Shown one piece after another: positions 3-63,630 of a DNA stretch of 64,000 bases. The position numbers were made by a program, and so were the translations under genes. Source of the stretch: Escherichia virus TH43; the sequence record MT446414.1. The stretch is one strand, 5' to 3'. The first letter of the stretch is position 1; each line of letters begins with the position of its first letter. Under the pieces are notes generated by a model. That model was not told the origin of the DNA. It did no database searches and saw nothing but the letters and a program-made list of their open reading frames with translations.

Positions 3-599
3 ATGAGTAAACCATTAGTAGTAATTCTGAATGGACCTCCGGGTTGTGGTAAAGACACAATCGCTAATGCTTGGCTAGAATTCACTAAAGAGAACATCGA
101 ATTTAAGCCACATATAAAGGCTTTTAAGGAGCCTATGTACCGAGTTGCTGCTGCTGCATTAGGTATTCCTATTGACGAGTTCATGGAGCTGTATAGCGAC
201 CGTGAGTGGAAAGAACGAAGCCGTCCTGAATGGGGCGGTAAGTCAGTTCGAGATTTAATGATTGCAACTAGTGAGAGCTACTTGAAGCCAATGTTTGGTG
301 ACACCTGTATGGGTAAATTGGCTGTTAGTAGTATCAAACAACAACTGTTAGGACAGAAAGATGTTATCGTCTTCTCTGATGGTGGATTCAAAGCAGAGGT
401 TTCAGAACTGGAAGAACAATTCCATGTTCAAGTAGTTCAGATTCTTCGTGATGGTTGCACTTTTGAAGGAGACTCTCGTTCTTACATCGAAGGCAGTCAG
501 AGAAACACATATTACCTAGTAAACGATTCTACTGTAGAAGATGCAATAGACTATTTAAATTGGATTGTTGTACGGACACGGAGAGATCTCTATGTCTGA
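3..599 (+). CDS. P-loop kinase, deoxynucleoside monophosphate kinase-like
   Basis: Walker A GPPGCGKDT at residues 11-19 and overall pattern resembling T4-type dNMP kinases; motif-level only. Confidence 0.55.
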   Translation: MSKPLVVILNGPPGCGKDTIANAWLEFTKENIEFKPHIKAFKEPMYRVAAAALGIPIDEFMELYSDREWKERSRPEWGGKSVRDLMIATSESYLKPMFGDTCMGKLAVSSIKQQLLGQKDVIVFSDGGFKAEVSELEEQFHVQVVQILRDGCTFEGDSRSYIEGSQRNTYYLVNDSTVEDAIDYLNWIVVRTRRDLYV

Positions 600-44760: not shown

Positions 44761-44826
44761 TCTAGTGGAACAGGCAGCGAGCTTCTAACTCGCCTTACGA
44801 GGGTTCGAATCCTTCCGTCCCGACCA
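44751..44826 (+). tRNA. tRNA-Arg (anticodon UCU)
   Basis: Manual cloverleaf: acceptor CGGGGCG/CGTCCCG, D-arm GTCT-AGTGGAAC-AGGC, anticodon arm GCGAG-CTTCTAA-CTCGC, T-arm GAGGG-TTCGAAT-CCTTC, discriminator A, encoded CCA; 76 nt. Confidence 0.8.
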
Positions 44827-48999: not shown

Positions 49000-50220
49000 A
49001 TGTTCCCTGTAACACTTCAAAGCTGGAAAGAATCAGAAGATGTTGTAACCGTCTGGCCTCCTTGTTATGGTTTCCTTAAAGCAGGTTACTATCAGGGTGG
49101 TGATTATGATGAAGATGATGAAGACGGTGATCCTGACTACTACAACACGTATGACAGCAACTACGGCTGGAATATCCGCATCAAGGTGTGGAGTACAAAT
49201 ATGATGGTTCGTCAAGGCACTGCTGAAGAGAATGTTCTTGAGAATATGTTGCCTATGTCTGAAATCAAGTATATCTGGAACTCCGGAACACATCTTCCAG
49301 CTCACGGTGTAAGACGTTATGGTGATACTGAATATATCGCTACTCAGTATTTCCGTGAAGGGTTAGAAAATGAAGACCCTCGTCCTCCTTCTCATGTAGA
49401 AACATGGGCAGAAGAAAACAACCGTCCTGACATCACTGATCGTGTTGTTATGGAAACCTTTGCAGCATTTATGGACAAAGACTCTGACTCATGTCTGGTG
49501 TGGCATGAAGTGGGGTTCATGGGTGTTTGCACTGATGGCTGTCCCGCTGATCGTGCTCTGTTCTATCTGATGTTGAATCGCACATTCTATACAGATGATG
49601 AAAAATCTGCTGTGTATGAAATGTTGAACAAGATGTATAAGAAGGGCTGGTCTCCTTTAGCCTCTCTTGCATTCAGCCGACTGATCAACTCTTCAGTGGA
49701 TGTGTTCGGTAACGAACGTGTTGCTTTAACAGGGAATGATTACGATTCCTGTATCTTCCAAGCATCTCTGTATACAGTGGGTGTTGGTAGTACAATGGTT
49801 GAGCCTCGCCAGACCAAATGGCGACAGTGTGAATACACTGAAGGTGAAGGTCATCTTCGTGATGAAGACTTCTCCAGTCTGATCTATCGCAGTGAAGGTG
49901 TTCGTGATTGTCGAGTGAACAACTCGATGTTCTTGCCAATCCTTTTGCCTCAATATTGCCATCTGTCGGAAGATACCCGCCCAATCATCACAGAAAAGTC
50001 ACTCTTGGTTGAATTTATCCGAGAGGTGGCTGAATCTGAAACATCTTTTGCTAAAATTGTGTTCGGTTATAACTGGAACAATGAAACAGCTTCAGCTCGA
50101 AGCTACAACATGTATAACATTATCAGTAGTATGTCCAATGGACTGACAGGTAGTAATTATACAGTACGTCCCTCAGAAGAGTGGGAAAACATTTTGGAAA
50201 AATTATTCTTCAATAAATAG
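49000..50220 (+). CDS. hypothetical protein, 406 aa (first gene of enzyme cluster)
   Basis: Acidic N-terminal stretch; AAAGAGG upstream; no motif recognised. Confidence 0.55.
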   Translation: MFPVTLQSWKESEDVVTVWPPCYGFLKAGYYQGGDYDEDDEDGDPDYYNTYDSNYGWNIRIKVWSTNMMVRQGTAEENVLENMLPMSEIKYIWNSGTHLPAHGVRRYGDTEYIATQYFREGLENEDPRPPSHVETWAEENNRPDITDRVVMETFAAFMDKDSDSCLVWHEVGFMGVCTDGCPADRALFYLMLNRTFYTDDEKSAVYEMLNKMYKKGWSPLASLAFSRLINSSVDVFGNERVALTGNDYDSCIFQASLYTVGVGSTMVEPRQTKWRQCEYTEGEGHLRDEDFSSLIYRSEGVRDCRVNNSMFLPILLPQYCHLSEDTRPIITEKSLLVEFIREVAESETSFAKIVFGYNWNNETASARSYNMYNIISSMSNGLTGSNYTVRPSEEWENILEKLFFNK

Positions 50221-50228
50221 AGGCGAAT

Positions 50229-51179
50229 ATGTCAATCTCCGCATCGACTGCTCCGGTAACACCATCAGAGGACTTTGGTGAGTCAGTGTTCAGAGGGCGA
50301 GCTTGTTTTGGTACTTTCAACTGTCAGCATATGTATGCTGTTACAGACATTAATGGCGACAGTATCAATCTCTCAAGCCTTCGTGATAGAACTTCAGAAG
50401 TTGGAGTTATCAACTTCTGGCCTCACAATTTTTATGGCGTACCAGCTAAAGATATCGAAAGAGCTTTAGTTGAAGCAACAGACATTTTTAACTCAATGTC
50501 TTGCTATAAAAACATGTTCTCTGTCACTTCGGTGAACTCAGTTGCCGTGAACCTTCGAGACCACCCAGCAGACAAGGTGTTTACTGGATTAATGACCCTC
50601 CGTAGTTATCTGGATGGGGATTTTATGGGAATGGAGTTCCTTCAGGAAGGCGTTCAAGACAAGGAAGAGTTACTCAAGCGACAACGAATCGGCTTAGCTT
50701 TACGCTTAGCTGGTTTAAGTCGTAACTTCTTTGGTCGTTGGGATTATTCACATGATGTGGATACTGATGATGAATCAGCAGCGACCTATTTTACTGGCGA
50801 AATGAGTGCAATTGCATTCTTGCCACTGGTCTGTACCACTGACGAATTTTCTGAAAACGTATGGGTTCAGAACGTGTTCGGTGTTGGTGATAACAGAGAT
50901 GGTTATGTACGAAACCATAATGACGGAGTTCTTCGTAGTATGGCTCGTCGTCGTGACCAAGACCCTGACTATTACGAGAGTATGAGTGAGTGGTTGCGTC
51001 TCTGGTCAATGTGTGCAGGCCATAAACGTGAAGTATTAGATCAGCGTATGGACAGAATTACTGTTCGCAGTTTTATTGAACGCTTGATGCAAGCAGTACC
51101 TTCCTCAATGACACCAGAAGAAGCTGGTGCCCGTGTTGTTTCCCTTTTTGATGAACTTGTGGAGTATTACAATGACTAA
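50229..51179 (+). CDS. hypothetical protein, 316 aa
   Basis: Co-linear, tightly spaced with neighbours; no motif. Confidence 0.55.
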   Translation: MSISASTAPVTPSEDFGESVFRGRACFGTFNCQHMYAVTDINGDSINLSSLRDRTSEVGVINFWPHNFYGVPAKDIERALVEATDIFNSMSCYKNMFSVTSVNSVAVNLRDHPADKVFTGLMTLRSYLDGDFMGMEFLQEGVQDKEELLKRQRIGLALRLAGLSRNFFGRWDYSHDVDTDDESAATYFTGEMSAIAFLPLVCTTDEFSENVWVQNVFGVGDNRDGYVRNHNDGVLRSMARRRDQDPDYYESMSEWLRLWSMCAGHKREVLDQRMDRITVRSFIERLMQAVPSSMTPEEAGARVVSLFDELVEYYND

Positions 51180-51978
51180 GCGTGCTTTCCTTATTGGTTC
51201 TGACCCTGAAATGTTTGTTCGTACTGCTTCTGGTGTTATCACCTCTGTGGCTGGTAAGCTGGGCTGTTCTAAAGATAACAAAATTGATCTGGCCCCTGAT
51301 GTTCGTCTTCAAGAAGACAACGTTCTGGCTGAATTCGATATTAACCCACAGAAAGGGTTCGAAGCGTTTGATGATAACATCCAGCGTGGTATTGATCTGA
51401 CCAACAAAGTTCTTAATGAACGTGGTATGGAAGCTGCACTTGGGATTAGTTCTCATGTGTACACTTCTGAAGAGCTGCAATCATTCCATCCATCAGCCTT
51501 TGTGTTTGGCTGTACTCCTGATTTCAACGCCTTCACTGGTCAGAAAAACCCATCTCCGGTAGCGACAGACAAAGGTCTTCGTACTGCTGGCGGTCACGTA
51601 CACCTCGGTGTTGCAGGGTCTTTGGAAGTAACTCGACAGACTCAGATGATGCTGGGTGTTCTGTGTGATTACTTCTTGTCACTTCCAGCGGTAATTATGG
51701 ATAAGGACACTCGTCGTAAAGAGCTTTACGGCAAGGCATCTGCTATTCGTTATAAAGATTATGGTATTGAATACCGTTCTCTGTCGAACTTCTGGATTGG
51801 TGAACAGTCCACTCGTAAGTTTGTTTACGATCAAGTTGATAAGGTTATTCAGGGCTGTGATATGGAAATTCTCATGTCTCTGCACTCCCGTCTGCCTATC
51901 GAAAAGCTTCACAACATCATCAATAGCAACGATGTTAAAGAAGCGGATAAGTTCTCCTCTAAACTCCAGATTATCTAA
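51172..51978 (+). CDS. amidoligase-like protein (GCS2 / glutamine-synthetase-like fold), paralog A
   Basis: N-terminal LIGSDPEMFV and central GGHVHLGV resemble carboxylate-amine ligase metal/ATP motifs; ATG 51172 with GGAG upstream. Confidence 0.45.
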   Translation: MTKRAFLIGSDPEMFVRTASGVITSVAGKLGCSKDNKIDLAPDVRLQEDNVLAEFDINPQKGFEAFDDNIQRGIDLTNKVLNERGMEAALGISSHVYTSEELQSFHPSAFVFGCTPDFNAFTGQKNPSPVATDKGLRTAGGHVHLGVAGSLEVTRQTQMMLGVLCDYFLSLPAVIMDKDTRRKELYGKASAIRYKDYGIEYRSLSNFWIGEQSTRKFVYDQVDKVIQGCDMEILMSLHSRLPIEKLHNIINSNDVKEADKFSSKLQII

Positions 51979-51987
51979 GGTGTTATC

Positions 51988-52614
51988 GTGAGCCTGTTAA
52001 GAGATTTTCAGCATTATTATTGCGGAACATGGATTGCCCAACGTGCAGAACGAGGGATTAATTTACCTCTTTATGTACTCAACGTGAACCAAGCAAACCG
52101 CTTTGGAGAAGATGACTTCTCTCACGAAGCAGAAATGGCCTTAACTTTTGAAGTTGAACGCTGGTCTAAGAACGCCGAAGGGCAGTTTGAACGACAGGTT
52201 GTTCAGGGCATTCCTGTGTTTGATCAAAGCCTTATTCTGGAATCTCCAGATGTGGGATACTTACAACACGGCAACAACATGGTAAGCTGGACTCATATCA
52301 ACCCTGTTCGTCAGCGAGCTAAAGGTCTGATGGGGAACAAATTACGTGGTGCACCTCCTTCAATGGGTCGTTCGATTCCGGGAGAGCTGGTGTATAATCT
52401 GTTTAATCCTGACTTCGAAGGTCTGGTTACTCGCTTCATCTACATCAACCCTGTCGATGGTAAAGTTTATTACAAAGGGGCACTTGTAGGTCAAGTTGAT
52501 CTTTCTGCTGGTTACGGCGACAATGGTCGTCAATCTTTAAATCTTCTGGAGAAGTTCAAGCATATTTCTTCAGATCTGTCATCATATAATGTAGAGTTGG
52601 TGGAAACGTTATGA
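51988..52614 (+). CDS. hypothetical protein, 208 aa
   Basis: GTG start with AAGGTG upstream; stop overlaps next start. Confidence 0.5.
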   Translation: MSLLRDFQHYYCGTWIAQRAERGINLPLYVLNVNQANRFGEDDFSHEAEMALTFEVERWSKNAEGQFERQVVQGIPVFDQSLILESPDVGYLQHGNNMVSWTHINPVRQRAKGLMGNKLRGAPPSMGRSIPGELVYNLFNPDFEGLVTRFIYINPVDGKVYYKGALVGQVDLSAGYGDNGRQSLNLLEKFKHISSDLSSYNVELVETL

Positions 52615-53711
52615 CAACCGTAGCACAAGTTTTTGGATACCGTAATGCTCGTCTGGCTGAGCCGCACCCAAGCATCGCTTTTCAGTGTGGTATTGGCATC
52701 GAGCTGGAAGTTGAAGGAACCTCTGAAATTGATGCAGACCTTTGGGTTTGTACTGAAGATGGTTCACTTCGTGATGGCTGTGAGATGGTTTGTGCACGGC
52801 CTTATAACGGTGTAGAATTGCTTAGTGCTATTAACAATCTGAGTGAAGCAGTACAAGACTCTGAAGCTGAAGGGACTTGGCGCTGCTCTACTCACGTTCA
52901 TATGGATATGCGTGACGCTGATAGTAACATCCTGAAGAAAGTAATTCTTGGATGGACGTTCTATGAAAAGATGATGTTCAAATGTTCTGGATACCATCGC
53001 TATCGTAGCAACTTCTGTCCTGCCTTTGCTGTTGTTCAAGCACAGGTAATGAATGCTTCCGCAGCGTTCAACCGAGATGGTGAAGCCTTCTTCAATACTC
53101 TTGTTAATAGCTGGGACAAGTACACCTCCCTTAACCTATTACCTCTGGCTCAGTTTGGTTCTGTTGAATTTCGTATCTCAGAGCCAAAGTGGAAGAAAAG
53201 CCAACTCCTTAATCTGGTCAACCGCTTCTTGGTTCTCAAGAAACTAGCTGTTGAGTATGCAGATTTGGACAATGAAGCATATGTTGAGAAACTGAATGAG
53301 CTACGCTTCGCTCCTATGATTCAGTATCTGCCTCTGGACTACACACCTAATGATGATGACCTGACTGGCGGTTATCGTTTGGCTCGTGATATTCTGTTCT
53401 GTCGTGAACATTCTGTTACTCTGGTTGGTCGTGTTCGTGTACAGCAGACTGGACCTGATGGTGAAATCCTTATCAACTTGCGTGACATGGGTGACTTCTA
53501 CGGTTTCTTGGGATATGTACGAGGTAATGCTAACTCTGTTTATGAAGAGATCATGACCTATTACACCCCTCAGATTGAAAACACTCGAATCGCAACGGTT
53601 CGTGAAATTCGTCACATGTTTGCTCTGATGCGTGAATCAGGTAGCAGTGATAATAACATCACCGATTACATTCCAGACCATCTGGAAATGCAATTAGAAC
53701 GACTGCTGTAA
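52611..53711 (+). CDS. amidoligase (GCS2-like carboxylate-amine ligase), paralog B
   Basis: GIGIELEVEG near N-terminus and CSTHVHMDM downstream, the E-x-E ... H-V-H arrangement of GCS2-type ligases. Confidence 0.5.
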   Translation: MTTVAQVFGYRNARLAEPHPSIAFQCGIGIELEVEGTSEIDADLWVCTEDGSLRDGCEMVCARPYNGVELLSAINNLSEAVQDSEAEGTWRCSTHVHMDMRDADSNILKKVILGWTFYEKMMFKCSGYHRYRSNFCPAFAVVQAQVMNASAAFNRDGEAFFNTLVNSWDKYTSLNLLPLAQFGSVEFRISEPKWKKSQLLNLVNRFLVLKKLAVEYADLDNEAYVEKLNELRFAPMIQYLPLDYTPNDDDLTGGYRLARDILFCREHSVTLVGRVRVQQTGPDGEILINLRDMGDFYGFLGYVRGNANSVYEEIMTYYTPQIENTRIATVREIRHMFALMRESGSSDNNITDYIPDHLEMQLERLL

Positions 53712-53818
53712 CACAATGGGCGCTCTGATAAAGGGCGCATTTAAAGGTTAATTAGATGAAAGGGTTTACCCTTCAGGTGGATTAGAAAATTTGTGGTATC
53801 GTATTAGCTGGGGGCAAC

Positions 53819-55822
53819 ATGACCTCCACAGACTTAGACGTATTCAACCAGCTTCTGTATGCTGGGGTCTTCCGTGGTCAGCACTCAACTGGTGTGTTCG
53901 GTCAGCGTAAAGGTGATGAAAAAGTATTTTCTTATAAAGAAGCACTTCCTTCCTATGCCTTCATGCTCCAGACAGGGTACACGAATCTTACTAAGGGGCT
54001 TACGAACTATGTAGTTCCTCCATCGTGGATTGTTGGTCATAGCCGACATGCCACACGTGGTGCTGTCAATGCTCGAAATGCTCACCCATTCTCTCATGGT
54101 GACATTACTCTGGTTCATAATGGTACACTGTTAGATCAGGAACTGTTACCAGATCATAAGAATTTCGAAGTTGATAGCGAAAACATCTGTCATTCAATCA
54201 ACACCATCGGCGCAGCAGAGACTATCCAGAAGTTGGATGGTGCGTTCACTTTAATCTGGCATGACGCCAAAGACAATACTCTGCATATCATTCGTAACGA
54301 TGAACGTCCTTTCCATCTGGCCCGTTGTGGTCTGGATTGGTTTGGTGCTTCTGAAGAAGATATGTTGATGTGGATTCTTAATCGTTCCAAGTCACACAAG
54401 AACCGTATCAATGATCACTTTGAGTGTAAAGTGGGAACTGAATACATCTTTGATTTGTCTGGCAACCGTATGACTCTGACTCAAGAGGTGGAGCACAAGC
54501 TTCCGGTTTTTACGGTAACGAGTCGCTGGGGCGGCTATTACTCGAACTCCTCTCTATATCAGAACCAACAGACAAACAAGTCAAGCAGCAGCACAAGCGA
54601 CATTTACGGAAACAAAGACGACAAGCCCGGCGTGACAAGCGGGGACATTCGTCGTCGTAAAGCGATTGAAGATCAGAATAAACTGGCTGCCGATCGTGGT
54701 CTTCCGTATCGTCGTGACGGTCGTGTGGATATCATCCCTCACGAGTTCCACGCTTACAACAACACTGACCGTGGTAAGATGGTTGGTTATATTTATGATG
54801 ATGCTGCTCAAGAGTATGTTGAGGGTGATGTTCATAATGTAGCCAAGAGTGAATACTTGAAGGCTCTCGAAAACCCAAAGGTGGTGTATCGCGGGACGGT
54901 TGCTTGTATCTCCGAAGTGGACAGTATGATTCGCCTCGTACTCACTTCAGGGCTGTTTGTTGATGCTACCGATAAGGAGCCTCAAAGCACCACCGCTGAT
55001 TTTGATGATGATATCCCTTTTGATTTAGAAGACTCCTTCATCACTAAGAATGGTGTGGAAGTCACCCGTAAGTTCTGGGAATCACATTCTCATGGTGATT
55101 GTGGCGGTTGTGACAAGCACATTGAATGGAAAGATGCTAAGAAAGCTGTGTTCGCTTACCAAGCATATTGGCATCCGGCCTGTTTCGAAGCATTGTCCAA
55201 ACCGTCTGAAGAAGATGAAGACATTCCTTTGGGTGTCTGTGCTGTATGTGGCAATGTTAAAACTGATTTCGAGTTTGATAACGAAATGAGTAAACTTCGT
55301 GGTGAAGATATTTGTTATGTCTGTGCCAAAGAGATCAAAGACAAAGTGACTAACACTACATTGTCTGAAGGTTACATTTGGACTAAAGCAGTTGACACAA
55401 CCAACCCACGTCGCCCTGAAGTAGCAGTTCGTGTTGATCAGCGTATGCTTAGCCGAATGACTGTAATGGCTAGTTCAGCTAAACGTTCTGGTGATATTGA
55501 GCTGTCTGATGTTCCAAACTCTTATTTGGAAAAACGTGGTGGCGATACCTATGCCATCTCTGTTTATGGTCCAAAGAATGCCCCAAAGGAGGTGCCCGCT
55601 GAGAAAGCGGAAACATTTCCAGAAAAGCAAACAACTCTCCGAAAAACAGTTGTCAGTTACGACGGACAACGAACAGCTGAGTTCACAAAAGCCCTCTGGA
55701 CTTCAATTGGGTTTTGTGCAGTCTGTTATAAACAAATTCCGTGGCGTGATGCAGAAGTTTGCTCACTAAACAAAGAAAACAGGGTGATCTGTAATTCAGA
55801 TTACTGTAAAGGTAAACATTAA
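53819..55822 (+). CDS. class-II glutamine amidotransferase-like (Ntn fold) domain fused to a Cys-rich C-terminal module
   Basis: FRGQHSTG, GHSRHATRGAVNARNAHPF, VHNGTL, DSENICH align to conserved blocks of GlmS/AsnB-type GATase domains, but no N-terminal Cys; C-terminal half has several CxxC clusters. Confidence 0.55.
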   Translation: MTSTDLDVFNQLLYAGVFRGQHSTGVFGQRKGDEKVFSYKEALPSYAFMLQTGYTNLTKGLTNYVVPPSWIVGHSRHATRGAVNARNAHPFSHGDITLVHNGTLLDQELLPDHKNFEVDSENICHSINTIGAAETIQKLDGAFTLIWHDAKDNTLHIIRNDERPFHLARCGLDWFGASEEDMLMWILNRSKSHKNRINDHFECKVGTEYIFDLSGNRMTLTQEVEHKLPVFTVTSRWGGYYSNSSLYQNQQTNKSSSSTSDIYGNKDDKPGVTSGDIRRRKAIEDQNKLAADRGLPYRRDGRVDIIPHEFHAYNNTDRGKMVGYIYDDAAQEYVEGDVHNVAKSEYLKALENPKVVYRGTVACISEVDSMIRLVLTSGLFVDATDKEPQSTTADFDDDIPFDLEDSFITKNGVEVTRKFWESHSHGDCGGCDKHIEWKDAKKAVFAYQAYWHPACFEALSKPSEEDEDIPLGVCAVCGNVKTDFEFDNEMSKLRGEDICYVCAKEIKDKVTNTTLSEGYIWTKAVDTTNPRRPEVAVRVDQRMLSRMTVMASSAKRSGDIELSDVPNSYLEKRGGDTYAISVYGPKNAPKEVPAEKAETFPEKQTTLRKTVVSYDGQRTAEFTKALWTSIGFCAVCYKQIPWRDAEVCSLNKENRVICNSDYCKGKH

Positions 55823-55833
55823 GAGGTGAAGTT

Positions 55834-56067
55834 ATGGAAGTTCGTAAATTGATGTTGGATAACGTTGTAACCACTCGACGTATCCCAATGACAAGCACAG
55901 GATGTGACAACCTTCGAGCTATTCAGAAATGGATGCAAGAGGGTATTGGGGGACTGGTTAACTCTCCAGTTGAAATCCCTTTCCCAACCGTTATCAACAA
56001 CGTGTTGGCTGACTATGTGAAATTGAAGGGGATTAAAGTTGAGCCTCATGTCAAGCAAGGGAGCTAA
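55834..56067 (+). CDS. hypothetical protein, 77 aa
   Basis: ATG with GAGGTG upstream. Confidence 0.45.
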   Translation: MEVRKLMLDNVVTTRRIPMTSTGCDNLRAIQKWMQEGIGGLVNSPVEIPFPTVINNVLADYVKLKGIKVEPHVKQGS

Positions 56068-56269
56068 GCCTCACCTGACAATGCTGGAGTATCAACAACT
56101 CCGACTTCAACAACTGGTAACGGAGCAGCGAAAGCTGTATCCGTTTGCTTTTAACCTAATTGATTCACCAAGCGATGACCAAGAAGACGAGATGTTCGCC
56201 AAGTATTGGGAAATCGAAGTTAAAATTCAATCCTGTCGTAACGAAATTCTTAAACTAAAAGGTATCTAA
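56048..56269 (+). CDS. hypothetical acidic protein, about 73 aa
   Basis: Overlaps the previous ORF by 20 nt in another frame; start uncertain. Confidence 0.35.
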   Translation: MSSKGAKPHLTMLEYQQLRLQQLVTEQRKLYPFAFNLIDSPSDDQEDEMFAKYWEIEVKIQSCRNEILKLKGI

Positions 56270-56271
56270 AA

Positions 56272-57519
56272 ATGACTACTCGTATCCGTGTTCTTCCGTA
56301 TGGCCCTTCTGATTCTGTTAACGCTCTGGTAACTGCCATTAACGATACTATCCGTGATGAACGTATCAACGCTAACGTAATGGGTCTTCTTTCAGAGAAC
56401 AGTCGCTGGCGTTCTCGTGAGGGTGATGTGGTTGTGAACTACGGGAACCGTCGCTATCCTGAATCCTTCTTTGGTTCTGCAACTGTTCTTAACCGTACCG
56501 CAGCCTTACATATGGCAGCGAACAAACGTCGCGCTTTCAGTGTGATGGACCAAGCAGGTGTTAAAACTGTTGAGTATACAGATGTTCAATCAACTGCTCA
56601 GGAGTGGTCAAACTCTGGCAACATTGTGTATGAACGTCATGAACTGACTGGTCACTCTGGTTCAGGTATCATTGTTGTAGAGCCTCGTGATTCAGTTGGT
56701 CAAGCTGAACTGTACACCAAAGGTATTCTAGGCCCACGTCGTGAATGGCGTGTCCATGTGTTCAAAGGTGCTATCACCTATGTTCAGAAAAAGATTCGTC
56801 GTAACGGTTATCGTGAAGACCCTAACTATCGTGAAGATGTTCGTAACCATCACACTGGTTGGGTTTACTCAAGTTCCTTCACAGACGTTCCGAACGATGC
56901 CTCTCTGATCAACGCAGTGAAAGCTGTTGAATCAATGGGTCTAGATTTCGGTGCAGTTGATATCATCACCAAAGGTCAAGAAGCATGGGTACTGGAAGTT
57001 AATACAGCACCGGGCCTAACTGGCACAACTCTGGATATCTACCGTCACAATATCCTTGAGTTTGTTAAAGCTCAAAACCCTCTCTATACTCCTCAGTATA
57101 AAGTGGTTTATGCAACACCTGTTGAAGCTTCAATCGAAGATGGAGACGGTGAGTTGGTGGATGATATTGAAAGTGCTGGCGATGAAAACTTTGCACTGGA
57201 AGGTCAGACAGCACAACCGGTTGATTCAGTTGATGTGGTTCCTGAAGAAATGCAATTAGAAGGTCAGATGAATACTCAAACTATTCGTAATGCACCTACT
57301 GGTTATACTTTGTCTCGTGGTTACTGGATTGCAAATATTCGTCATGTTCACAACAACCTGCAACCTAATGCAATGTCTGCCAATGTCATTCTGTTCTGCG
57401 ACGGTCGTAACTTCTACCGCAGTGGTTGGAACGTTCCAGTCCATCCAGCACAGATTAATAACCCTCGTAAGTTAGAGTCTGTAACTGTTGAAGGTAGTGA
57501 AGTAGCAGTAACTCTGTAA
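56272..57519 (+). CDS. ATP-grasp ligase (RimK / glutathione-synthetase-like)
   Basis: GNIVYERHELTGHSGSGIIVV, EWRVHVFKG, LDFGAVDII ... WVLEVNTAPGL are the characteristic ATP-grasp blocks. Confidence 0.65.
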   Translation: MTTRIRVLPYGPSDSVNALVTAINDTIRDERINANVMGLLSENSRWRSREGDVVVNYGNRRYPESFFGSATVLNRTAALHMAANKRRAFSVMDQAGVKTVEYTDVQSTAQEWSNSGNIVYERHELTGHSGSGIIVVEPRDSVGQAELYTKGILGPRREWRVHVFKGAITYVQKKIRRNGYREDPNYREDVRNHHTGWVYSSSFTDVPNDASLINAVKAVESMGLDFGAVDIITKGQEAWVLEVNTAPGLTGTTLDIYRHNILEFVKAQNPLYTPQYKVVYATPVEASIEDGDGELVDDIESAGDENFALEGQTAQPVDSVDVVPEEMQLEGQMNTQTIRNAPTGYTLSRGYWIANIRHVHNNLQPNAMSANVILFCDGRNFYRSGWNVPVHPAQINNPRKLESVTVEGSEVAVTL

Positions 57520-57541
57520 TTAAAAACAAAAGGAATTTGTA

Positions 57542-57784
57542 ATGTTGTCTATCGAAGATTTGATCAGTCGTGGAATGACCGAACAAAAAGAACCTCTGAT
57601 TGTCGGTTCTCGTAAAGCTATTAACCAACTCTGTGAAGAGTTTGGAATCACAAACAAGAGAATGATTGGTAATCAGTTCTCTGCAATTATCACCTTCCTT
57701 AAACGAGGTGATAAATATTCAATGGAATGTGTTGAGCGTATCATCGCAATTGCACAAGAAGATAAGGGAGTAACAACTCTGTGA
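57542..57784 (+). CDS. hypothetical protein, 80 aa
   Basis: ATG with AAGGAA upstream. Confidence 0.45.
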   Translation: MLSIEDLISRGMTEQKEPLIVGSRKAINQLCEEFGITNKRMIGNQFSAIITFLKRGDKYSMECVERIIAIAQEDKGVTTL

Positions 57785-57966
57785 ATAAATACACAATCAT
57801 GTTTCGTACAGTAAACTCAGAAGGGAATATTCAATCTCTGGACATTCAAGCAGAACGCTTTGAATCACTTGGAACAAGTGTTAACTTCTTCCGAGGAGTA
57901 GAGTTGGTAGGTACATTCCAATCTGATGTGTTGACTGGTGTGATCAAACACTTCGAAGTAGAATAA
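57781..57966 (+). CDS. hypothetical protein, 61 aa
   Basis: GTG start overlapping upstream stop. Confidence 0.35.
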   Translation: MNKYTIMFRTVNSEGNIQSLDIQAERFESLGTSVNFFRGVELVGTFQSDVLTGVIKHFEVE

Positions 57967-58031
57967 TTTGCTTTAGCCTCTTCGAAAGAGGAGGCTAGTT
58001 CGAATTTAACTGAAACACAAAAGGTAATATA

Positions 58032-58463
58032 ATGTCTGATAAAGTATTAGTTGCAACGTATGGTTCTCTTCGTAAAGGTCAACACAACCACGCTATCAAT
58101 GCTCGTGCCGGTGGTGTGTCTATTGGTGAAGGTTGGACAGTGAACAACTGTAACCTGTATCAGTATTGCACAGCATACTTCCCAAGTGTATCTCTGGAGC
58201 ACGACAGCAATGGTAAGCCTGTTCGTGTGGAAGTGTTTGAAACAACCCAAGCGGGTTTGGAAGGTCCGTATGACGGTCTGGAAGGTTATCGTGGTAAAGA
58301 CAATCCATACACTTTCTACAATCGTACACTGATTCCAGTGGTGCTGGATAGTGGTGAGACTGTGGAAGCATGGATTTATCATATCGACGAAGAACAAGAT
58401 GTTCTGGTTGAATCTGGCGACTGGACAGCGTATCTGGCAGGTGATCAGGATGACAGTAACTGA
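58032..58463 (+). CDS. gamma-glutamyl cyclotransferase-like (AIG2/GGCT fold) protein
   Basis: N-terminal VATYGSLRKGQ (YGSL motif) and central Glu (VEVFE) in GGCT-like arrangement; AAGG upstream. Confidence 0.55.
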   Translation: MSDKVLVATYGSLRKGQHNHAINARAGGVSIGEGWTVNNCNLYQYCTAYFPSVSLEHDSNGKPVRVEVFETTQAGLEGPYDGLEGYRGKDNPYTFYNRTLIPVVLDSGETVEAWIYHIDEEQDVLVESGDWTAYLAGDQDDSN

Positions 58464-58692: not shown

Positions 58693-60483
58693 ATGTCAAA
58701 GATCATTTTAGGGGATACAGGTTGTAAAGAATGTATCTCTCATGGTCGTGATAAGACCCACAATCACATGATTCTCTTCCGAAACGAAGAGTCCGGTGAA
58801 GAGTGGGGCAGTTGTAATCGTTGTGGCAGTTATGAAGTTTTCGAAAAGGGAACAACTCCTACACCGAATGAAAAGAAAGAACTATCCCCTGAAGAACTCC
58901 GAGAGATCTTAGACGATTGCTTAGAGCTGCCTCAGGGTGAGCTTACTCGTCGTTTGATTCCTAAAGCTGTCTCTGAACGGTATGAATGCCGTATTGGTTT
59001 GAGTCAGACAGATGGGCAAACTCCTGATAGTTACTTCTTCCCTCGTGAACGTGATGGAAACATTGTTGGTTATGAAGTTAAGCTTCTGGACAGCAAGAAA
59101 TTCTATTACATCGGCAGTGTTAAAGAAGCTGACCTATTCGGTATGGCTCAAGCACAACGTGGTGACGTGTACAACAAGAAGCTCTTCATCTTTGAAGACC
59201 CACTCTCTTGTATGTCTGGCTTCCATGTGCTCACTGCGTTTACGAACGCTACAAACATCAAACCTGCGTGTGTATCTCTACCGTTTGGTGCAGGTTCAAT
59301 CTCTTCCGTTCTCTCACGTAACCGTGACTTCTTGAATGGTTTTGAGGAGATTGTGCTCTGCATGGACAATGATGATGCAGGTGAGATTGCATTAACTAAA
59401 GGTCGTGCATTATATCCCCATGTTAAATTTGCTCGTATTCCGAAAGGAACCTTCACTTACAATGGTCAAGAGAAGGAAATCAAAGATGCAAATGACATGT
59501 TACTCGCTGGTCGAGGTCAAGAGTTATTCAACAATCTGAAATATTCAGCGAAGCGGGAATCACCTGCTGGTGCTGTTACTGTCTTTGATTGTTTAGAAGA
59601 TGCTCTGAAGAAAGCGGAGTGGGGTATTCCTTATCCGTGGAAAACTCTGAATGAAATGACCTTCGGTATTCGTTGGGGAGAGATGGTTGCAATCGGTGGT
59701 GGTGTTGGTTCAGGTAAAACCCTGATCGCACACGAACTGGTAGCATGGCTTTGCCTTGAACATGGGTTTAATGGTGGTGGCTTCTTCTTGGAAGAGAAGG
59801 TAGGCATGTCTGTTAAAAACATTGCAGGTAAGTCAGCATCTGTACCTTTCCACCGACCTGATGTTGAATATGAGGAATCTCAGCTACGTGATGAAGCACT
59901 TCGTTATGCTGATAAATTCTTCTTGTATGATAACTTCGGTCAGAATGAGTGGGATGATATTAAGCAGTGTATTCGCTTTTGGGTAGTTGAGAATCAGTGT
60001 AAGTTTATCATTCTTGATAACATCACTGCATTGGTATCTCACCTAACTCCTTCTGAAGTGAATACAGAAATCAGTAAGATTGCCTCAGAGCTTGCTGGTA
60101 TGTGTAAGGAATTAGACTTCACTGCTTTTGTATTATCTCACTTGAATGCTCCGGCAGGTGGTGCTCCTCACGAAGAAGGTGGACAGGTGAAAGAGGTTCA
60201 GTTCACTGGTTCACGTTCACTGATGCGTTGGTGTCAATGTATCATTGGTTTTGAACGAGATAAGCAAGCAGATGGGTTAGGCAAGAATTTGTCAATCATA
60301 CGACTCCTTAAGGAGCGTAACTATGGTCAGACAGGTGTTTGCTACACCAAATACATCAACGAAACAGGTCGTCTTGTAGAACGAGAAGATCATGAAGTTG
60401 ATGAAGCTAATCCGTTTGTCTTAACCAATGGTGAAGATGCAGCTTCCCTTCTAACACAAGACGGGGAGGCACGACCTTGGTAA
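58693..60483 (+). CDS. DNA primase-helicase (zinc finger, TOPRIM, DnaB-like helicase)
   Basis: N-terminal CxxC ... CxxC; TOPRIM-like [10 protein letters not shown]; Walker [10 protein letters not shown] and Walker B FIILDN; AAGGAGGA upstream. Confidence 0.8.
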
Positions 60484-61025
60484 AGAAAATATTCGCCTTC
60501 GATATTGAGGGTGATAATCTTTATGAGGGTATCCAAAATGTCTGGTGTATCTGGATATTTGATATTCTCTCAGGAGAGCGGTGGGGGTATCGCCCTCACC
60601 AAATTGAAGAAGCTCTTCACAAACTGAAGGAAGCTGATGTAGTTGTAGGACACAATATCATAGATTTTGACCTACCAGCTCTCTTTAAATTCTACTCTCA
60701 TGTAATACCCTTCCGTTTCAATGTTTTCGATACACTTTGCCTGAGTCGTTATCTCAAGCCTGACCGTATTGGAGACAATCCAGAATATCCCAAAGGTGAC
60801 CCAAGACATGGCCCTCGCGGTCATGGCCTCAAGCAATGGGGCGAATTTCTGGGGGAGCTGAAGGGTGACTATGGTGAGCAGGAAGAAGCATGGGATGCGT
60901 TCACTGAAGACATGTTCACATATTGTGAGCAAGACGTTAACTTGACGGTTAAGGTTTACATGTGTCTTTGCCAAATGGCTGGATTTGATTATAAGAATCC
61001 CCCATCTCTCAACTGGAAAATGTAG
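60477..61025 (+). CDS. 3'-5' exonuclease (DnaQ-like, DEDD family)
   Basis: Exo I FDIEGDN, Exo [14 protein letters not shown], Exo III YCEQDV. Confidence 0.65.
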
Positions 61026-61027
61026 AA

Positions 61028-62476
61028 ATGATTAAGATTCCATTGTCTGAATTAAACCTTCAAGAAGGAGAAGCCCTCAGTGTAGGGCTTGACCTGATTC
61101 GTAACCTGATCAGAGATAACGTAGTTCCTGATGGTATCTACCCTGTTATTGCAGGTGGTGCTATTCGTGACACGTTCTTCCAGAACCGAACTCCGAATGA
61201 TGTTGATATCTTCCTAGTTCAAGGAGGGTTTCGTTGGAACACTCGTCAGGAAAACAGCCCTGCTAACGTGGGTAATGCTGCACTGTTCCTTGACAACTTC
61301 TTGTCTTGGACAGAGAGTAAGGGACTTCAAGTAACATCTCGCCTAGTTCAGCCTGTTAGTGGGACAACTTACGCTGAAGCACTTTTCACTTTCCAAGAGA
61401 TTTTGGAAGTGGAGATTGACGAAGTGAAGATTCAGATGATGATTAACCTCCCTCTGGATATGGATACTCTGAGCGGTCGCTTCCCTATGATTTGTCAAGG
61501 GTTTATGACTCTCGATGATATGTATGTGTCGAACGAAGGTATGTTTGCAATGGCATATACTAATGATATCCCTGTGGTGACAAGTCGTGACATGAAGTAT
61601 GTCCACAAAAAGTGGCCTGAAGCAACAGTTGCAGTTTACAGCAGTTCTACTGAGTATATGCACCTTGCAATGGGAGCTTTTGGTGAACCAGAAGTTCATC
61701 TGATCAGTGATTTAGTTGGACCTATGGCTGGTGTAAACTTGTATCAGAATCAACGTCGCCACTACACCTTGAAGATGATGGAAACTGTATTAAATATTCC
61801 TAAGGAAGCGGGTCGTATCTATCTGGATGAAGAAGTTAACCTACAGACAGATTGGTCTAGTGAATTAACCACTATTGGTGTTGAAGCAATTACGCAGCCT
61901 TGGACTCCGGGAACTGACAGACGTGACTCTTGGCAACAGACAAGATTCGCAGCACCTGCTACAGAGGCACCTCGTGATACTTTCACTGGTAGTTTTGGTA
62001 GTGCCCGTTCTTCTGGAATGGGTACTCGTACATGGCACGTCACTCATGATACAGGTGGAGTAACTGTTCGACCTGCTTCTTCTCCATCTATGGGTGATTT
62101 GCAGCGCTCCCGTCGTTCATGGGAAACAGTTAGCTCTGTTGTTCAGGGTCTACGTTCTAGTGATATAGAACGTGTAGAAGTTGGTGATTTGCCAACCCCT
62201 ACGGAAGATCGGGTAGCAGCTATAGCCGCTCGTGAAGCTGCTCGTATTGGTTTTGCATCTTTAGCTAATGATGCTAACAATACTCCTCGACCTGTCGGTC
62301 GTCGTAATGGTCTGGCTCATTCTAACACTGCACTTGGTGCAGAACTCCGAGCAACAGCTCGTGAATTAGTTGGTGAACTTGATAGTAACTTAGCAGGTGT
62401 TACGCTGACTCGTGAAACAGCTCGTAACATGATTAACAATTTGGCATCATCTGTACAAGGAAACAGAAACTCATGA
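61028..62476 (+). CDS. nucleotidyltransferase (Pol-beta superfamily, CCA-adding-enzyme-like head) with long low-complexity C-terminus
   Basis: AGGAIRD ... NDVDIFL matches hG[GS] ... DxD and the GGAVRD head motif of tRNA nucleotidyltransferases. Confidence 0.5.
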   Translation: MIKIPLSELNLQEGEALSVGLDLIRNLIRDNVVPDGIYPVIAGGAIRDTFFQNRTPNDVDIFLVQGGFRWNTRQENSPANVGNAALFLDNFLSWTESKGLQVTSRLVQPVSGTTYAEALFTFQEILEVEIDEVKIQMMINLPLDMDTLSGRFPMICQGFMTLDDMYVSNEGMFAMAYTNDIPVVTSRDMKYVHKKWPEATVAVYSSSTEYMHLAMGAFGEPEVHLISDLVGPMAGVNLYQNQRRHYTLKMMETVLNIPKEAGRIYLDEEVNLQTDWSSELTTIGVEAITQPWTPGTDRRDSWQQTRFAAPATEAPRDTFTGSFGSARSSGMGTRTWHVTHDTGGVTVRPASSPSMGDLQRSRRSWETVSSVVQGLRSSDIERVEVGDLPTPTEDRVAAIAAREAARIGFASLANDANNTPRPVGRRNGLAHSNTALGAELRATARELVGELDSNLAGVTLTRETARNMINNLASSVQGNRNS

Positions 62477-63006
62477 GTCTTTTAGGTTCTCAAGAATTAC
62501 ACAGCGTTATTGATAATGGCTTTTTAGATGCGGAGCATAAATATGTTAACGCTGCTAGTGTGGATATCCGTATTGGTGATACTATCCTTGTTGAAGAACA
62601 GGCTGACGGCATTGTTGACATTGATGCTAAAGAAAACCTCAAGTGGAAAGAGGTGAAAATCCCTGAAGATGGTATTGTCATCACTCCGGGACAATTCTTC
62701 TTAGCGCACTCAATGGAAGAGTTTAACCTTCCAGATAACATCTCAAGTCTGTTTGTACTTCGCTCCTCAATGGCTCGTTGTGGTTTGAACCACTTACATG
62801 CTGGTTGGGCTGATGCAGGGTTTAACAGCAGTAAGCTGACCTTTGAATTCCATAACGTTACCCACAACCACAGCTTACGAGTTCGTGCTGGGATGCGTGT
62901 TGGTCAGATGGTTATGTTTGAACACTCTCACGCTGGTGATGATTCCTATGCAGTGAAGGGTCGTTACAATGGCAGCAATGGGGTAGTTGCATCTAAAGGT
63001 GTATAA
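62473..63006 (+). CDS. dcd: dCTP deaminase
   Basis: Full-length resemblance to bacterial dCTP deaminases (dUTPase fold), conserved SSMARCG and GWAD..F blocks. Confidence 0.7.
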   Translation: MSLLGSQELHSVIDNGFLDAEHKYVNAASVDIRIGDTILVEEQADGIVDIDAKENLKWKEVKIPEDGIVITPGQFFLAHSMEEFNLPDNISSLFVLRSSMARCGLNHLHAGWADAGFNSSKLTFEFHNVTHNHSLRVRAGMRVGQMVMFEHSHAGDDSYAVKGRYNGSNGVVASKGV

Positions 63007-63011
63007 CCAAG

Positions 63012-63203
63012 ATGAAAGAAGAAAAAGCTACTTACTTAGCTATTGGTTTTGTAGTTGGGGCATTTGCTATGGGAGTATTTATATCTAACGTTGGTCCAGA
63101 TTCTAGCGTTAAGATTGAGACGAGAAGAGCCGCTTGTGAAATAAATCTCCCTCGTAATCAGGTCTGTGTAATGCAGTTTGTCCCTAAATCGGTTGACAGA
63201 TAA
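63012..63203 (+). CDS. small membrane protein, 63 aa
   Basis: N-terminal transmembrane helix YLAIGFVVGAFAMGVFI. Confidence 0.4.
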   Translation: MKEEKATYLAIGFVVGAFAMGVFISNVGPDSSVKIETRRAACEINLPRNQVCVMQFVPKSVDR

Positions 63204-63415
63204 TGGAGTTTGGAACAATGAAAAGACGTTGGGTAGTTCGTATTCACTGGAGCAGTGGTACAGAGTCAATGGGTATTAGGAATACCCGTCAAGAAGCTCG
63301 CGCTCATAAGAAGTTCTTGTTAAGTTGTGAAAGCACAATTAATAAGATCACTATCCACAAAGCTCAAGACTTTAAATCAGGTCGTTTCTATATCAGCGGA
63401 AAGGTACATTACTAA
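63203..63415 (+). CDS. small protein, NTRQEAR-motif paralog 1
   Basis: IRNTRQEARAHKK; tandem paralog of next gene. Confidence 0.45.
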   Translation: MEFGTMKRRWVVRIHWSSGTESMGIRNTRQEARAHKKFLLSCESTINKITIHKAQDFKSGRFYISGKVHY

Positions 63416-63630
63416 TGGATAAATTATGGGCAGTTCGTACTAAATGGGCTAACAAAGCTCTTGGTGGTGATTGTATTCAATTATTCAACACAAGACAAGA
63501 GGCTCGTCTTGCTAAGAAAACTATAAAAGCTACAAAAGCTTTAGGAATCGCTGAAAAGGTGGAGATTCATCGTTGGATTGAAAATATCCAGAACAGTGCT
63601 GGATTCATATCCAGCAAGGTTTATTACTAG
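63415..63630 (+). CDS. small protein, NTRQEAR-motif paralog 2
   Basis: FNTRQEARLAKK; both paralogs end in K-V-(H/Y)-Y. Confidence 0.45.
   Translation: MDKLWAVRTKWANKALGGDCIQLFNTRQEARLAKKTIKATKALGIAEKVEIHRWIENIQNSAGFISSKVYY

Follow-up and report, generated by a model that had tools for sequence, protein, structure and literature searches.

The dcd gene of TH43 is a genuine dCTP deaminase gene of the PF22769/TIGR02274 family, and its product, Dcd, is judged from its active-site residues most likely to be bifunctional, taking dCTP straight to dUMP. We consider it probable that the gene serves ordinary DNA-precursor supply, in the order dCTP, dUMP, dTMP, dTTP; it most likely does not point to an exotic DNA base. 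The sequence analyzed (hereafter the window) is 64 kb of the ~77 kb genome of this phiEco32-like E. coli podophage (Gordonclarkvirinae), and the features discussed are listed in Table 1. A preliminary description of the window had offered two readings for dcd, ordinary dTTP supply and DNA modification: the former is favored here, and the latter is disfavored by the ThyX of close relatives, by the dUMP-forming signature of Dcd, and by searches that found no modification enzymes.

Table 1. Features of the window discussed in the text.
Feature	Coordinates	Strand	Basis
Deoxynucleoside monophosphate (dNMP) kinase	3..599	+	PHROG 139, 4.3e-40
phiEco32-type amidoligase / glutamine amidotransferase / ATP-grasp / gamma-glutamyl cyclotransferase cluster	49000..58463	+	Pfam and PHROG matches
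T7-like DNA primase/helicase	58693..60483	+	DnaB_C (2.1e-10) and Toprim_2; Bas87 annotation
DNA polymerase 3'-5' exonuclease subunit	60477..61025	+	PF01612, 4e-06; Bas87 annotation
Phage-restricted Pol-beta-type nucleotidyltransferase	61028..62476	+	PHROG 12715, 3.8e-161
dcd, dCTP deaminase, 177 aa; predicted bifunctional dCTP deaminase:dUTPase (dUMP-forming)	62473..63006	+	ATG-initiated ORF
Three small ORFs directly 3' of dcd	63012-63203, 63203-63415, 63415-63630	+	phrog_7508 (one ORF), phrog_4939 (two ORFs)

Assignment of this ORF as a dCTP deaminase, as first proposed in the preliminary description, was borne out by family matches and by the modeled fold. Its product matched Pfam DCD (PF22769; E = 1.6e-34, 119.7 bits against a cut-off of 27) and the dCTP deaminase family PHROG 1663 (1.2e-58), and scored 107.1 bits with the NCBIfam equivalog TIGR02274 (dCTP_deam), above the curated cut-off of 92.8. 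An AlphaFold monomer model (pLDDT 94.8) has a jelly-roll, dUTPase-like fold with a C-terminal arm, and aligned with the solved structures 4a6a, 2qxx, 1xs1, and 4xjc at TM scores of 0.86-0.88 and rmsd values of 2.1-2.7 Å, the fold search giving 0.88 for 4a6a and 2qxx. Dcd is most likely a homotrimer of such dUTPase-fold subunits; in this family the active sites lie between subunits, and dTTP exerts feedback inhibition. The TM scores were alike for mono- and bifunctional templates (0.87 for E. coli Dcd), so the fold search does not discriminate between the two.

The gene is already known: a dCTP deaminase has been annotated from phiEco32 (EU330206) onward and in about 90 other Gordonclarkvirinae genomes (GenBank; PMC11990801 S3 Fig), at a locus syntenic with that of TH43. 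Dcd is 100% identical to its counterparts in Bas87, IME267, and HC-25922, and 92.7% identical to that of phiEco32. These records describe materially the same gene and are silent on whether the enzyme is mono- or bifunctional. The position beside replication genes, remarked on in the preliminary description, also held, dcd following directly on the genes for the primase/helicase, the exonuclease subunit, and the nucleotidyltransferase. Tight gene packing suggests that dcd forms one operon with them: the TGA stop of the nucleotidyltransferase gene shares bases with the dcd ATG in an ATGA overlap, and the gaps from dcd through the small downstream ORFs are +5, -1, and -1 nt. The last two of these ORFs are tandem paralogs.

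Across 55 homologs, the deamination residues Ser98, Arg102, Ala110, and Glu125 are invariant, while His107 is invariant in one homolog alignment and nearly so in another; the E. coli counterparts are Ser111, Arg115, Ala124, Glu138, and His121. In bifunctional enzymes, the position of E. coli Arg126, a residue that otherwise fills the nucleophilic-water site and blocks dUTP hydrolysis, is occupied by Phe or Trp, and Ser102, Asp119, and Gln148 of the Mycobacterium tuberculosis enzyme are indispensable for dUTP hydrolysis; these criteria derive from a few characterized enzymes (PMC3360063). Dcd has Trp112 at the Arg126 position (Trp in 46, Phe in nine, and Arg in none of the 55 homologs), and its Ser98, Asp114, and Gln145 are the counterparts of the three M. 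tuberculosis residues, Asp114 and Gln145 being invariant in the same homologs. Because Trp112 replaces the blocking Arg, and because Ser98, Asp114, and Gln145 are present, Dcd carries a dUMP-forming signature.

Among sequences of solved structure, the closest to Dcd are the bifunctional enzymes of B. halodurans (1e-14) and M. tuberculosis (6.5e-14), with E. coli Dcd at 3e-6. With the bifunctional enzymes (EC 3.5.4.30) of M. tuberculosis (Rv0321; 2qxx, 2qlp, 4a6a), B. halodurans (4xjc), and Methanocaldococcus jannaschii (1ogh), the phage protein shares the fold, the catalytic Ser/Arg/Glu, an aromatic residue at the Arg position, and the Ser/Asp/Gln set for dUTP hydrolysis. Unlike them, it is virus-encoded and its activity is predicted, and the identity is only 25-31%. 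Further, the phage clade has ADAGF where the bifunctional enzymes have (I/V)DPGF, lacks one residue ahead of His107, and has one extra residue following Gly116.

A monofunctional Dcd, releasing dUTP for conversion to dUMP by the Dut that the host possesses, would still contribute to dTTP supply. That the blocking Arg is Trp or Phe in 55 of 55 homologs, and that Gln145 stands where E. coli Dcd has Ala, makes this version unlikely, even though the NCBIfam equivalog matched is dCTP_deam and the E. coli fold fits nearly as well as the bifunctional ones. Monofunctional E. coli Dcd (1xs1; 26% identity) has the family, the fold, the deamination residues, and the role upstream of thymidylate synthesis in common with the phage enzyme, and differs from it in having Arg126 and Ala in place of Trp112 and Gln145; it releases dUTP and depends on Dut (PMC3360063).

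The probable partner of Dcd lies just beyond the window. About 13.5 kb of the genome is outside the window. There, some 3.4 kb downstream of dcd, the closest relatives encode ThyX, a flavin-dependent thymidylate synthase; we infer ThyX for TH43 from relatives whose gap-flanking sequence is 95-97% identical. The ThyX of these relatives matched PF02511 (4e-43) and TIGR02170 (121.1 bits, cut-off 87.9), and its dUMP-binding residues are conserved (equivalents of T. maritima Gln75, Ser88, Arg90, Arg147, Arg174, and His178). The RHR of the RHRx7S signature, an FAD-binding motif (PMC6514825), is replaced by K-H-Q with a one-residue insertion, as it is in all 120 nearest homologs. A disabled or repurposed enzyme was rejected as the main reading of this variant, given that the substrate residues are intact, that RHR is a cofactor contact, and that the K-H-Q form is common to hundreds of phages. 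Linkage of Dcd to ThyX recurs elsewhere: the two lie within 2.7 kb in the distant phage L005, are linked along with NrdD/NrdG in the distant phages L006 and L008, and are encoded by adjacent genes in haloarchaeal viruses. No separate dUTPase was found in the phage annotations looked at. The dNMP-kinase-like P-loop kinase cited in the preliminary description is real, as judged by its PHROG match (Table 1); Pfam, NCBIfam, and the PDB gave P-loop-level matches only, and no informative solved relative.

We propose that a single active site of Dcd deaminates dCTP and hydrolyzes the dUTP so formed, yielding dUMP, PPi, and NH3. Phage ThyX would then methylate dUMP to dTMP, and the phage dNMP kinase, proposed for the step from dTMP to dTDP, and host Ndk would complete the path to dTTP. 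Such a route would hold free dUTP low and would convert surplus dC to dT, which would suit a phage genome of 42.7% GC in a host of 50.8% GC; the two base compositions imply that about 16% of dC has to become dT. Chlorovirus PBCV-1 offers a parallel, being a virus of lower GC content than its host that pairs a dCMP/dCTP deaminase with ThyX to shift dCTP:dTTP (PMC10142491). The PBCV-1 deaminase has a different fold, however, the host is eukaryotic, and the GC gap is much wider (66% versus 40%); the pool shifts were measured in PBCV-1, whereas those for TH43 are predicted.

It is also conceivable that Dcd is only a dUTPase, like the archaeal proteins that bear a dCTP deaminase annotation, or that it is a pool-depleting weapon for host shut-off, superinfection exclusion, or counter-defense; taken together, we hold these to be highly improbable. 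Solved archaeal dUTPases do occur among the fold matches of Dcd, but against PRK02253, the model for dUTPases of archaeal type, it scores below threshold (48 bits, cut-off 130), every deamination residue is invariant, and the curated dCTP_deam cut-off is passed while those of the dUTPase models are failed. Bacterial dCTP deaminases are described as antiviral pool depleters in one preprint (bioRxiv 10.1101/2021.04.26.441389), but the phage itself needs dCTP. In relatives, the gene is tightly linked to those for ThyX and ribonucleotide reductase, which counts against both ideas and is in keeping with precursor supply.

The preliminary description had also taken dcd, the dNMP kinase, and the amide-ligase cluster together as fitting DNA modification; the whole-genome check goes against a uracil-derived base. 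Phages with pre-replicative replacement or hypermodification of thymidine (SPO1, phiW-14, SP10, ViI, and M6) resemble TH43 in encoding a deaminase as a source of dUMP, and a dNMP kinase. The route in those phages (PMC8989533) employs a dCMP deaminase, a ThyA-family dUMP hydroxymethylase, a dTTPase/dTMPase, 5-HMUDK, and aGPT-Pplase; searches of the TH43 group recognized none of them, and ThyX is present instead. When a ThyA-fold hydroxymethylase was sought by tblastn (queries CBA120 gp055 and T4 gp42) in the window, in all of the Bas87 genome, and in the gap region of TH34, the best E was 1.4, with positive controls at 1e-119 to 1e-148 and the control recognized by Pfam as PF00303. No scanned ORF had a Pfam match to PF00303 or TET_JBP, and none, among those of about 100 aa and longer, matched 5-HMUDK or the amino-acid:DNA transferase aGPT-Pplase; the hydroxymethylase and the base-adduct transferase that the preliminary description had said to look for were thus not found in these searches. 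5-HMUDK was judged by Pfam rather than by direct reference-sequence comparison, and three ORFs of the amide-ligase cluster, at 49000-50220, 50229-51179, and 51988-52614, carry no family assignment. The sole P-loop kinase found is the dNMP kinase. No dTTPase or dTMPase that would empty the thymidine pool was recognized; the TH34 gap region does encode a calcineurin-like phosphoesterase (L003 14760-15449; PF00149, 8e-05). A thymidylate synthase with no hydroxymethylase signature, the sequence-level part of what had been named beforehand as speaking against modification, is what these sequences appear to present.

The amide-ligase cluster, reported earlier from the sequence, is itself real, with Pfam matches at about 51.1-58.5 kb to PF14395 (4.1e-08), PF12224 (1.7e-06), GATase_6 (9.2e-15), RimK (6e-04), and GGACT (7.6e-16), and with three ORFs that match lineage-specific PHROGs only. 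Examination of the cluster produced no evidence tying it to DNA or to Dcd. The nucleotidyltransferase upstream of dcd comprises a Pol-beta-type part (residues about 1-230) followed by a ~190-residue tail rich in Arg, Ala, Thr, and Ser. It has no Pfam match even at E up to 10 and accounts for about 28 clusters among 1.84 billion representatives, and a profile search of the PDB matched the class II CCA-adding enzyme 6ibp (E = 0.002) across its GGAVRD...DxD head. An AlphaFold model of residues 1-291 was of too low quality to use in fold comparison (pLDDT 47.5, from an alignment in which all sequences were at least 90% identical). In L008 the homolog is 278 aa long and lacks the tail, and in L006 the gene is absent between those for the exonuclease subunit and Dcd; the nucleotidyltransferase shares the operon with Dcd and is not an obligate partner.

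Restriction data bear on these genes as well. On strains carrying EcoRI, EcoRV, EcoKI, or EcoP1, the measured EOP of Gordonclarkvirinae is about 0.1-1 (PMC11990801), although sites for all four are present. Among the early ORFs scanned there were zero matches to an anti-restriction PHROG, and looking there for an acidic DNA mimic of the Ocr/ArdA kind turned up just one protein, mildly acidic and 90 aa long (35702-35974, pI 4.05). We found no chemical analysis of Gordonclarkvirinae virion DNA, and neither restriction-digest nor nucleoside data on this group appear in the SU10, Korf 2019, ZCEC16, or Durham-collection papers.

As a proxy for unmodified DNA, we compared palindrome avoidance among genomes. 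O/E was below 0.5 for 33% of palindromes in the window, 50% in T7, 26% in the T-hypermodified CBA120, and 8% in T4; for palindromes with one T per strand, O/E was 0.46, 0.21, 0.76, and 1.03, respectively. The window lies between T7 and CBA120 and far from T4, a placement that, with one genome per class, is suggestive only. Weaker avoidance of AT-rich sites was considered as a sign of thymine protection and dropped, as unmodified T7 shows the same gradient.

In a new hypermodification of thymidine or another base, dUMP from Dcd would pass to the K-H-Q ThyX or an unrecognized enzyme, and the amidoligase/GATase/ATP-grasp cluster and/or the nucleotidyltransferase would decorate the base. We think this very unlikely, and attach just as little probability to an undescribed Gordonclarkvirinae modification of this build as the explanation for evasion of EcoRI, EcoRV, EcoKI, and EcoP1. 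Such evasion is what DNA modification would yield, and some thymidine-hypermodification clusters do contain amidoligase and glutaminotransferase genes (PMC8989533); the cluster ORFs of no recognizable family, the atypical cofactor motif of this ThyX sub-family, and the milder depletion than in T7 of palindromes with one T per strand also fit. Yet all defining parts of the known pathways are missing from the scanned ORFs (ThyA-type hydroxymethylase, TET/JBP, 5-HMUDK, and aGPT-Pplase), the ThyX motif that is altered, RHR, is one for FAD binding and the dUMP-binding residues are intact, and in relatives Dcd travels with ThyX and NrdD/G. The nucleotidyltransferase, missing from L006, resembles RNA 3'-end enzymes, and palindrome avoidance is far stronger than that of T4. 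If true, this would be a modification pathway with no known hydroxymethylase, 5-HMUDK, or aGPT-Pplase component.

A 2025 study suggested that the deaminase and the neighboring nucleotidyltransferase mark deoxyuracil or otherwise modified DNA as the basis of evasion (PMC11990801). In the deoxyuracil version, dUTP from Dcd would replace dTTP, as in PBS1, and shield the DNA from restriction, which we regard as extremely improbable. Deoxyuracil DNA does resist thymine-reading enzymes (PMC12697855), and the evasion of sites that are present, with no known anti-restriction gene found, is in its favor. However, the phage keeps ThyX for thymidylate synthesis alongside its dNMP kinase, and Dcd carries a dUTP-hydrolyzing signature. 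Palindromes that contain T, such as AGTACT, TACGTA, ATCGAT, and ATGCAT, show 2.5- to 5-fold depletion. Ung and Dut, both present in the E. coli host, likewise speak against uracil in the DNA. Restriction profiling, along with sub-cloning, served to map the phiEco32 termini (PMC9965538), a further point against it. PBS1, PhiR1-37, and DSS3_VP1, like TH43, encode a dCTP-deaminating enzyme, but theirs has a zinc cytidine-deaminase fold, releases dUTP, and is partnered by dTMP/dTTP hydrolases (PMC12697855), whereas the TH43 enzyme has the trimeric dUTPase fold, a dUTP-hydrolysis signature, and ThyX as partner, and no such hydrolase was recognized here. The TH43 group does not show the features of that type, namely no thymidylate synthesis, a dTMP/dTTP hydrolase, and a dUTP-releasing Dcd. 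Phages of that type also have inhibitors of uracil-DNA glycosylase and of dUTPase, which are small and varied, and many small ORFs of TH43 carry no annotation. The evidence from Dcd and ThyX would thus argue against the published deoxyuracil suggestion.

Restriction evasion keeps a small door open for modification. Given the dUMP-forming signature, the retention of ThyX, and the failure to find modification enzymes, the cause of evasion should be looked for in other places, early proteins with no assigned function being one example. The useful outcome is negative and testable, in that the sequence evidence points away from deoxyuracil or modified DNA in these phages. The gene itself is routine, as a deaminase together with ThyX is a common viral route to extra dTTP.

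The gene dcd codes for a phage dCTP deaminase (Dcd) that is already known and bears the right annotation. Its product matched Pfam PF22769 'dCTP deaminase-like' (E 1.6e-34), PHROG 1663 (1.2e-58) and the NCBIfam equivalog TIGR02274 (107.1 bits, above the curated cut-off of 92.8), and an AlphaFold model built on an alignment of 55 homologues (mean pLDDT 94.8) superposed on solved dCTP deaminases with TM-scores of 0.86-0.88. Bas87, IME267 and HC-25922 encode the same protein (100% identity) and phiEco32 one with 92.7% identity; all four records already label it dCTP deaminase. Reading frame, family matches and fold thus agree with the preliminary description, which had placed such an enzyme next to replication genes. 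The genes from the primase/helicase to three small ORFs form a single operon of replication and precursor genes, with intergenic gaps of -7, +2, -4, +5, -1 and -1 nt and nothing inside it that convincingly resembles a promoter or terminator. Within the sequence ATGA, the start codon of dcd overlaps the stop codon of the nucleotidyltransferase gene, and the two genes are translationally coupled.

Features in the window and in the loci of related phages (L002, Bas87; L003, TH34; L005, L006 and L008, other relatives carrying Dcd)
Feature	Location	Strand	Remarks
P-loop kinase	3-599		dNMP kinase PHROG, 4.3e-40
Small early protein	35702-35974	+	90 aa; pI 4.05; net charge -11; phrog_16976 (unknown function)
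HNH endonuclease ORF	44338-44760		end overlaps first bases of tRNA-Arg(TCT)
tRNA-Arg(TCT)	44751-44826	+	own 3' CCA encoded
ProQ/FinO RNA-chaperone domain ORF	47294-47707	+	137 aa; PF04352, E 4e-06
Three conserved ORFs of the amide-ligase cluster	49000-50220, 50229-51179, 51988-52614	+	no Pfam family; lineage-specific PHROG matches only
Primase/helicase	58693-60483	+	upstream in dcd operon
Polymerase exonuclease subunit	60477-61025	+	upstream in dcd operon
Nucleotidyltransferase	61028-62476	+	482 aa; directly upstream of dcd
dcd	62473-63006	+	ATG start; 177 aa
Three small ORFs	downstream of dcd	+	end of operon
Adjoining tandem paralogues	63203-63415, 63415-63630	+	70-71 aa; both phrog_4939 (function unknown)
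ThyX	L002 2938-3588; L003 6424-7074		216 aa in Bas87; PF02511, 4e-43 in TH34
Ferritin-like-domain protein	L003 4498-5064; L005 1196-1717; L008 11314-11829		labelled 'DNA binding protein' in Bas87
Thioredoxin	L003 5431-5760		beside ferritin-like gene
NAD+-binding Ia domain (only) of NAD-dependent DNA ligase	L003 8168-8488		stand-alone, 106 aa; PF22745, 7.7e-34; relatives annotated 'DNA ligase'
NrdD, NrdG (anaerobic ribonucleotide reductase)	L006 10370-12487, 15387-15935; L008 14397-16520, 18291-18827		within Dcd/ThyX module

Residues that discriminate monofunctional from bifunctional enzymes have been described (PMC3360063, summarizing Johansson 2005 and Helt 2008): (i) Ser102, Asp119 and Gln148 of the Mycobacterium tuberculosis enzyme are required for dUTP hydrolysis, and (ii) an Arg (E. 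coli Arg126), salt-bridged to this Asp, fills the position of the nucleophilic water in monofunctional enzymes, whereas bifunctional ones have Phe or Trp in its place. When aligned with the M. tuberculosis enzyme and with E. coli Dcd (from MG1655), the phage protein retained the deamination residues Ser98, Arg102 and Glu125 and carried Asp114 and Gln145, the latter replaced by Ala in E. coli, as well as Trp112 in place of Arg126. Ser98, Arg102, Glu125, Asp114 and Gln145 are invariant among the 55 homologues, and the Arg126-equivalent position is occupied by Trp in 46, Phe in nine and Arg in none. The fold by itself does not separate the two classes; by sequence, the solved structures that match the phage protein best are those of the bifunctional Bacillus halodurans and M. 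tuberculosis enzymes. Because of these matches and the signature residues, the phage enzyme, given that it is a deaminase, is predicted with good confidence to form dUMP. The genome annotation lists no separate dUTPase.

Over its last 4 kb, the window shares 97% identity with Escherichia phages TH34 and TH42 and 92-95% with Bas87, ECBP2 and further phiEco32-like podophages (subfamily Gordonclarkvirinae), whose genomes are ~77 kb in size. The window starts with the dNMP kinase gene and ends ~1 kb past dcd; the ~13.5 kb joining its ends (TH34 locus L003, 4476-17977) are absent from it, so that the thymidylate synthase lay out of sight of the preliminary description. In Bas87, a 'thymidylate synthase' is encoded ~3.4 kb downstream of dcd, and its TH34 orthologue scores as a ThyX (TIGR02170, 121.1 bits; cut-off, 87.9). 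The dUMP-binding residues are kept (equivalents of Thermotoga maritima Gln75, Ser88, Arg90, Arg147, Arg174 and His178), while K-H-Q plus one inserted residue takes the place of the signature RHR, a change common to all 120 nearest homologues, including those of unrelated Yersinia, Erwinia and Salmonella phages. In FAD, RHR touches the ribityl chain and the phosphates; the first Arg of the motif makes further contacts with flavin and dUMP (PMC6514825). We read K-H-Q as a probable cofactor-binding variant of a phage ThyX sub-family. To our knowledge, no member of this sub-family has been characterized.

The known dUMP and dCMP hydroxymethylases all belong to the ThyA family (PMC8989533). In tblastn searches of the window, the entire genome of Bas87 and the TH34 gap with the CBA120 ThyA-like enzyme and T4 gp42, no match was better than E 1.4, while Dcd and ThyX controls yielded 1e-119 to 1e-148; the CBA120 enzyme was itself recognized as PF00303 by Pfam. 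Pfam and PHROG searches of essentially all non-structural ORFs of at least 100 aa found no TET/JBP, aGPT-Pplase, 5-HMUDK, glucosyltransferase or DNA methyltransferase. The P-loop kinase proved dNMP-kinase-like, as proposed, and the suggested amide-ligase cluster exists as the phiEco32-type set (PF14395, PF12224, GATase_6, RimK-like and GGACT), which is kept beside replication genes in distant relatives (L006 and L008). Amidoligase and glutaminotransferase genes do occur in some thymidine-hypermodification clusters, but always accompanied by 5-HMUDK and aGPT-Pplase (PMC8989533), neither of which was found here. A role for Dcd in DNA modification, the other possibility raised earlier, is therefore not supported by sequence evidence, with a ThyX present and no TET/JBP or ThyA-type hydroxymethylase found; we consider it very improbable, although it would account for the restriction evasion of this phage group, and the three cluster ORFs of no recognizable family are its main residual uncertainty.

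That phenotype is real. Bas87, with ~15 EcoRI and ~25 EcoRV sites, plated at efficiencies of 0.1-1.4 and 0.2-1.1 on the respective strains (BASEL raw data), whereas a control siphovirus fell to ~1e-5 on the EcoRV strain. The dCTP deaminase and nucleotidyltransferase have been taken to indicate modification, 'most simply deoxyuracil' (PMC11990801), and DNA shielded in this manner would match near-normal plating despite the sites. Deoxyuracil nevertheless fits poorly with (i) the retention of ThyX and the dNMP kinase, (ii) the dUTP-hydrolysing signature of Dcd, (iii) the zinc CDA-fold Dcds and dTMP or dTTP hydrolases of characterized deoxyuracil-DNA phages (PMC12697855), and (iv) the mapping of phiEco32 termini by restriction profiling and sub-cloning (PMC9965538). 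Only one small early protein is markedly acidic; as a DNA mimic that counters restriction, it is a weak candidate.

Site counts were compared with a Markov-4 expectation. Avoidance of restriction sites in the window is very strong: observed/expected ratios (O/E) were below 0.5 for 41% of all 6-bp palindromes, or 33% when only palindromes expected three or more times are counted, versus 0.7% of non-palindromic hexamers. CCWGG occurs four times against ~81 expected, GATC has an O/E of 0.48, and BamHI, MscI, EagI, NarI, SacII and ApaI sites are absent from the window; depleted sites containing T include AGTACT, TACGTA, ATCGAT, ATGCAT and CTGCAG. There is no depletion of EcoRI (15), EcoRV (26), EcoKI (9) or EcoP1 (120) sites, and the plating of close relatives on the corresponding strains is nearly normal (BASEL raw data). 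The genome has clearly been shaped by type II restriction pressure, which counts against global shielding of its DNA. Avoidance weakens with AT content, with the same gradient in unmodified T7. Palindromes with a single T per strand have an O/E of 0.46 in the window, between the 0.21 of T7 and the 0.76 of T-hypermodified CBA120 (T4, 1.03); with one control genome per class, this intermediate value is supporting evidence only.

The nucleotidyltransferase is an orphan from a very small phage-only family (~28 clusters among 1.84 billion representatives). Its catalytic head, GGAIRD...DVD, is similar to class II CCA-adding enzymes, at which NCBIfam faintly hints, and its profile matched PDB entry 6ibp marginally (E 0.002); this marginal resemblance may point to RNA 3' ends rather than DNA bases. 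Its ~190-residue Arg/Ala/Thr/Ser-rich tail (47.7% GC versus 43% in neighbors) occurs only in this lineage; the form in L008 has 278 aa, and L006 lacks the gene.

In the 2.8-kb contig L005, the 1.4 kb between Dcd and ThyX hold a ferritin-like gene. In a distant 52-kb phage (L006), a 52% identical Dcd directly follows the exonuclease subunit, without a nucleotidyltransferase, and precedes NrdD, Dam, ThyX and NrdG; a 101-kb relative (L008) has the order exonuclease subunit, nucleotidyltransferase homologue, Dcd, ferritin-like gene, ThyX, NrdD and NrdG. In haloarchaeal tailed viruses, dcd adjoins thyX. Dcd is thus found in the company of dNTP-supply genes, and the gene orders indicate that the nucleotidyltransferase is dispensable for it. 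Several relatives keep the ferritin-like gene in the interval from dcd to thyX. The annotation of the Bas87 genome includes no ribonucleotide reductase.

We infer a route in which Dcd would convert dCTP to dUMP, PPi and NH3, ThyX would methylate dUMP to dTMP, and the phage dNMP kinase and host Ndk would yield dTDP and then dTTP. The window has a GC content of 42.7% (T, 28.7%; C, 21.3%) compared with 50.8% in E. coli; if precursors come from host DNA or host-tuned pools, ~16% of dC must become dT. A viral precedent is PBCV-1, in which a deaminase and ThyX measurably shift the dCTP:dTTP ratio (PMC10142491). Considering the ThyX, the dUMP-forming signature and the lack of any recognized modification enzyme among the ORFs searched, we prefer the more ordinary of the two roles first envisaged: Dcd most likely serves dTTP supply, probably by forming dUMP directly.
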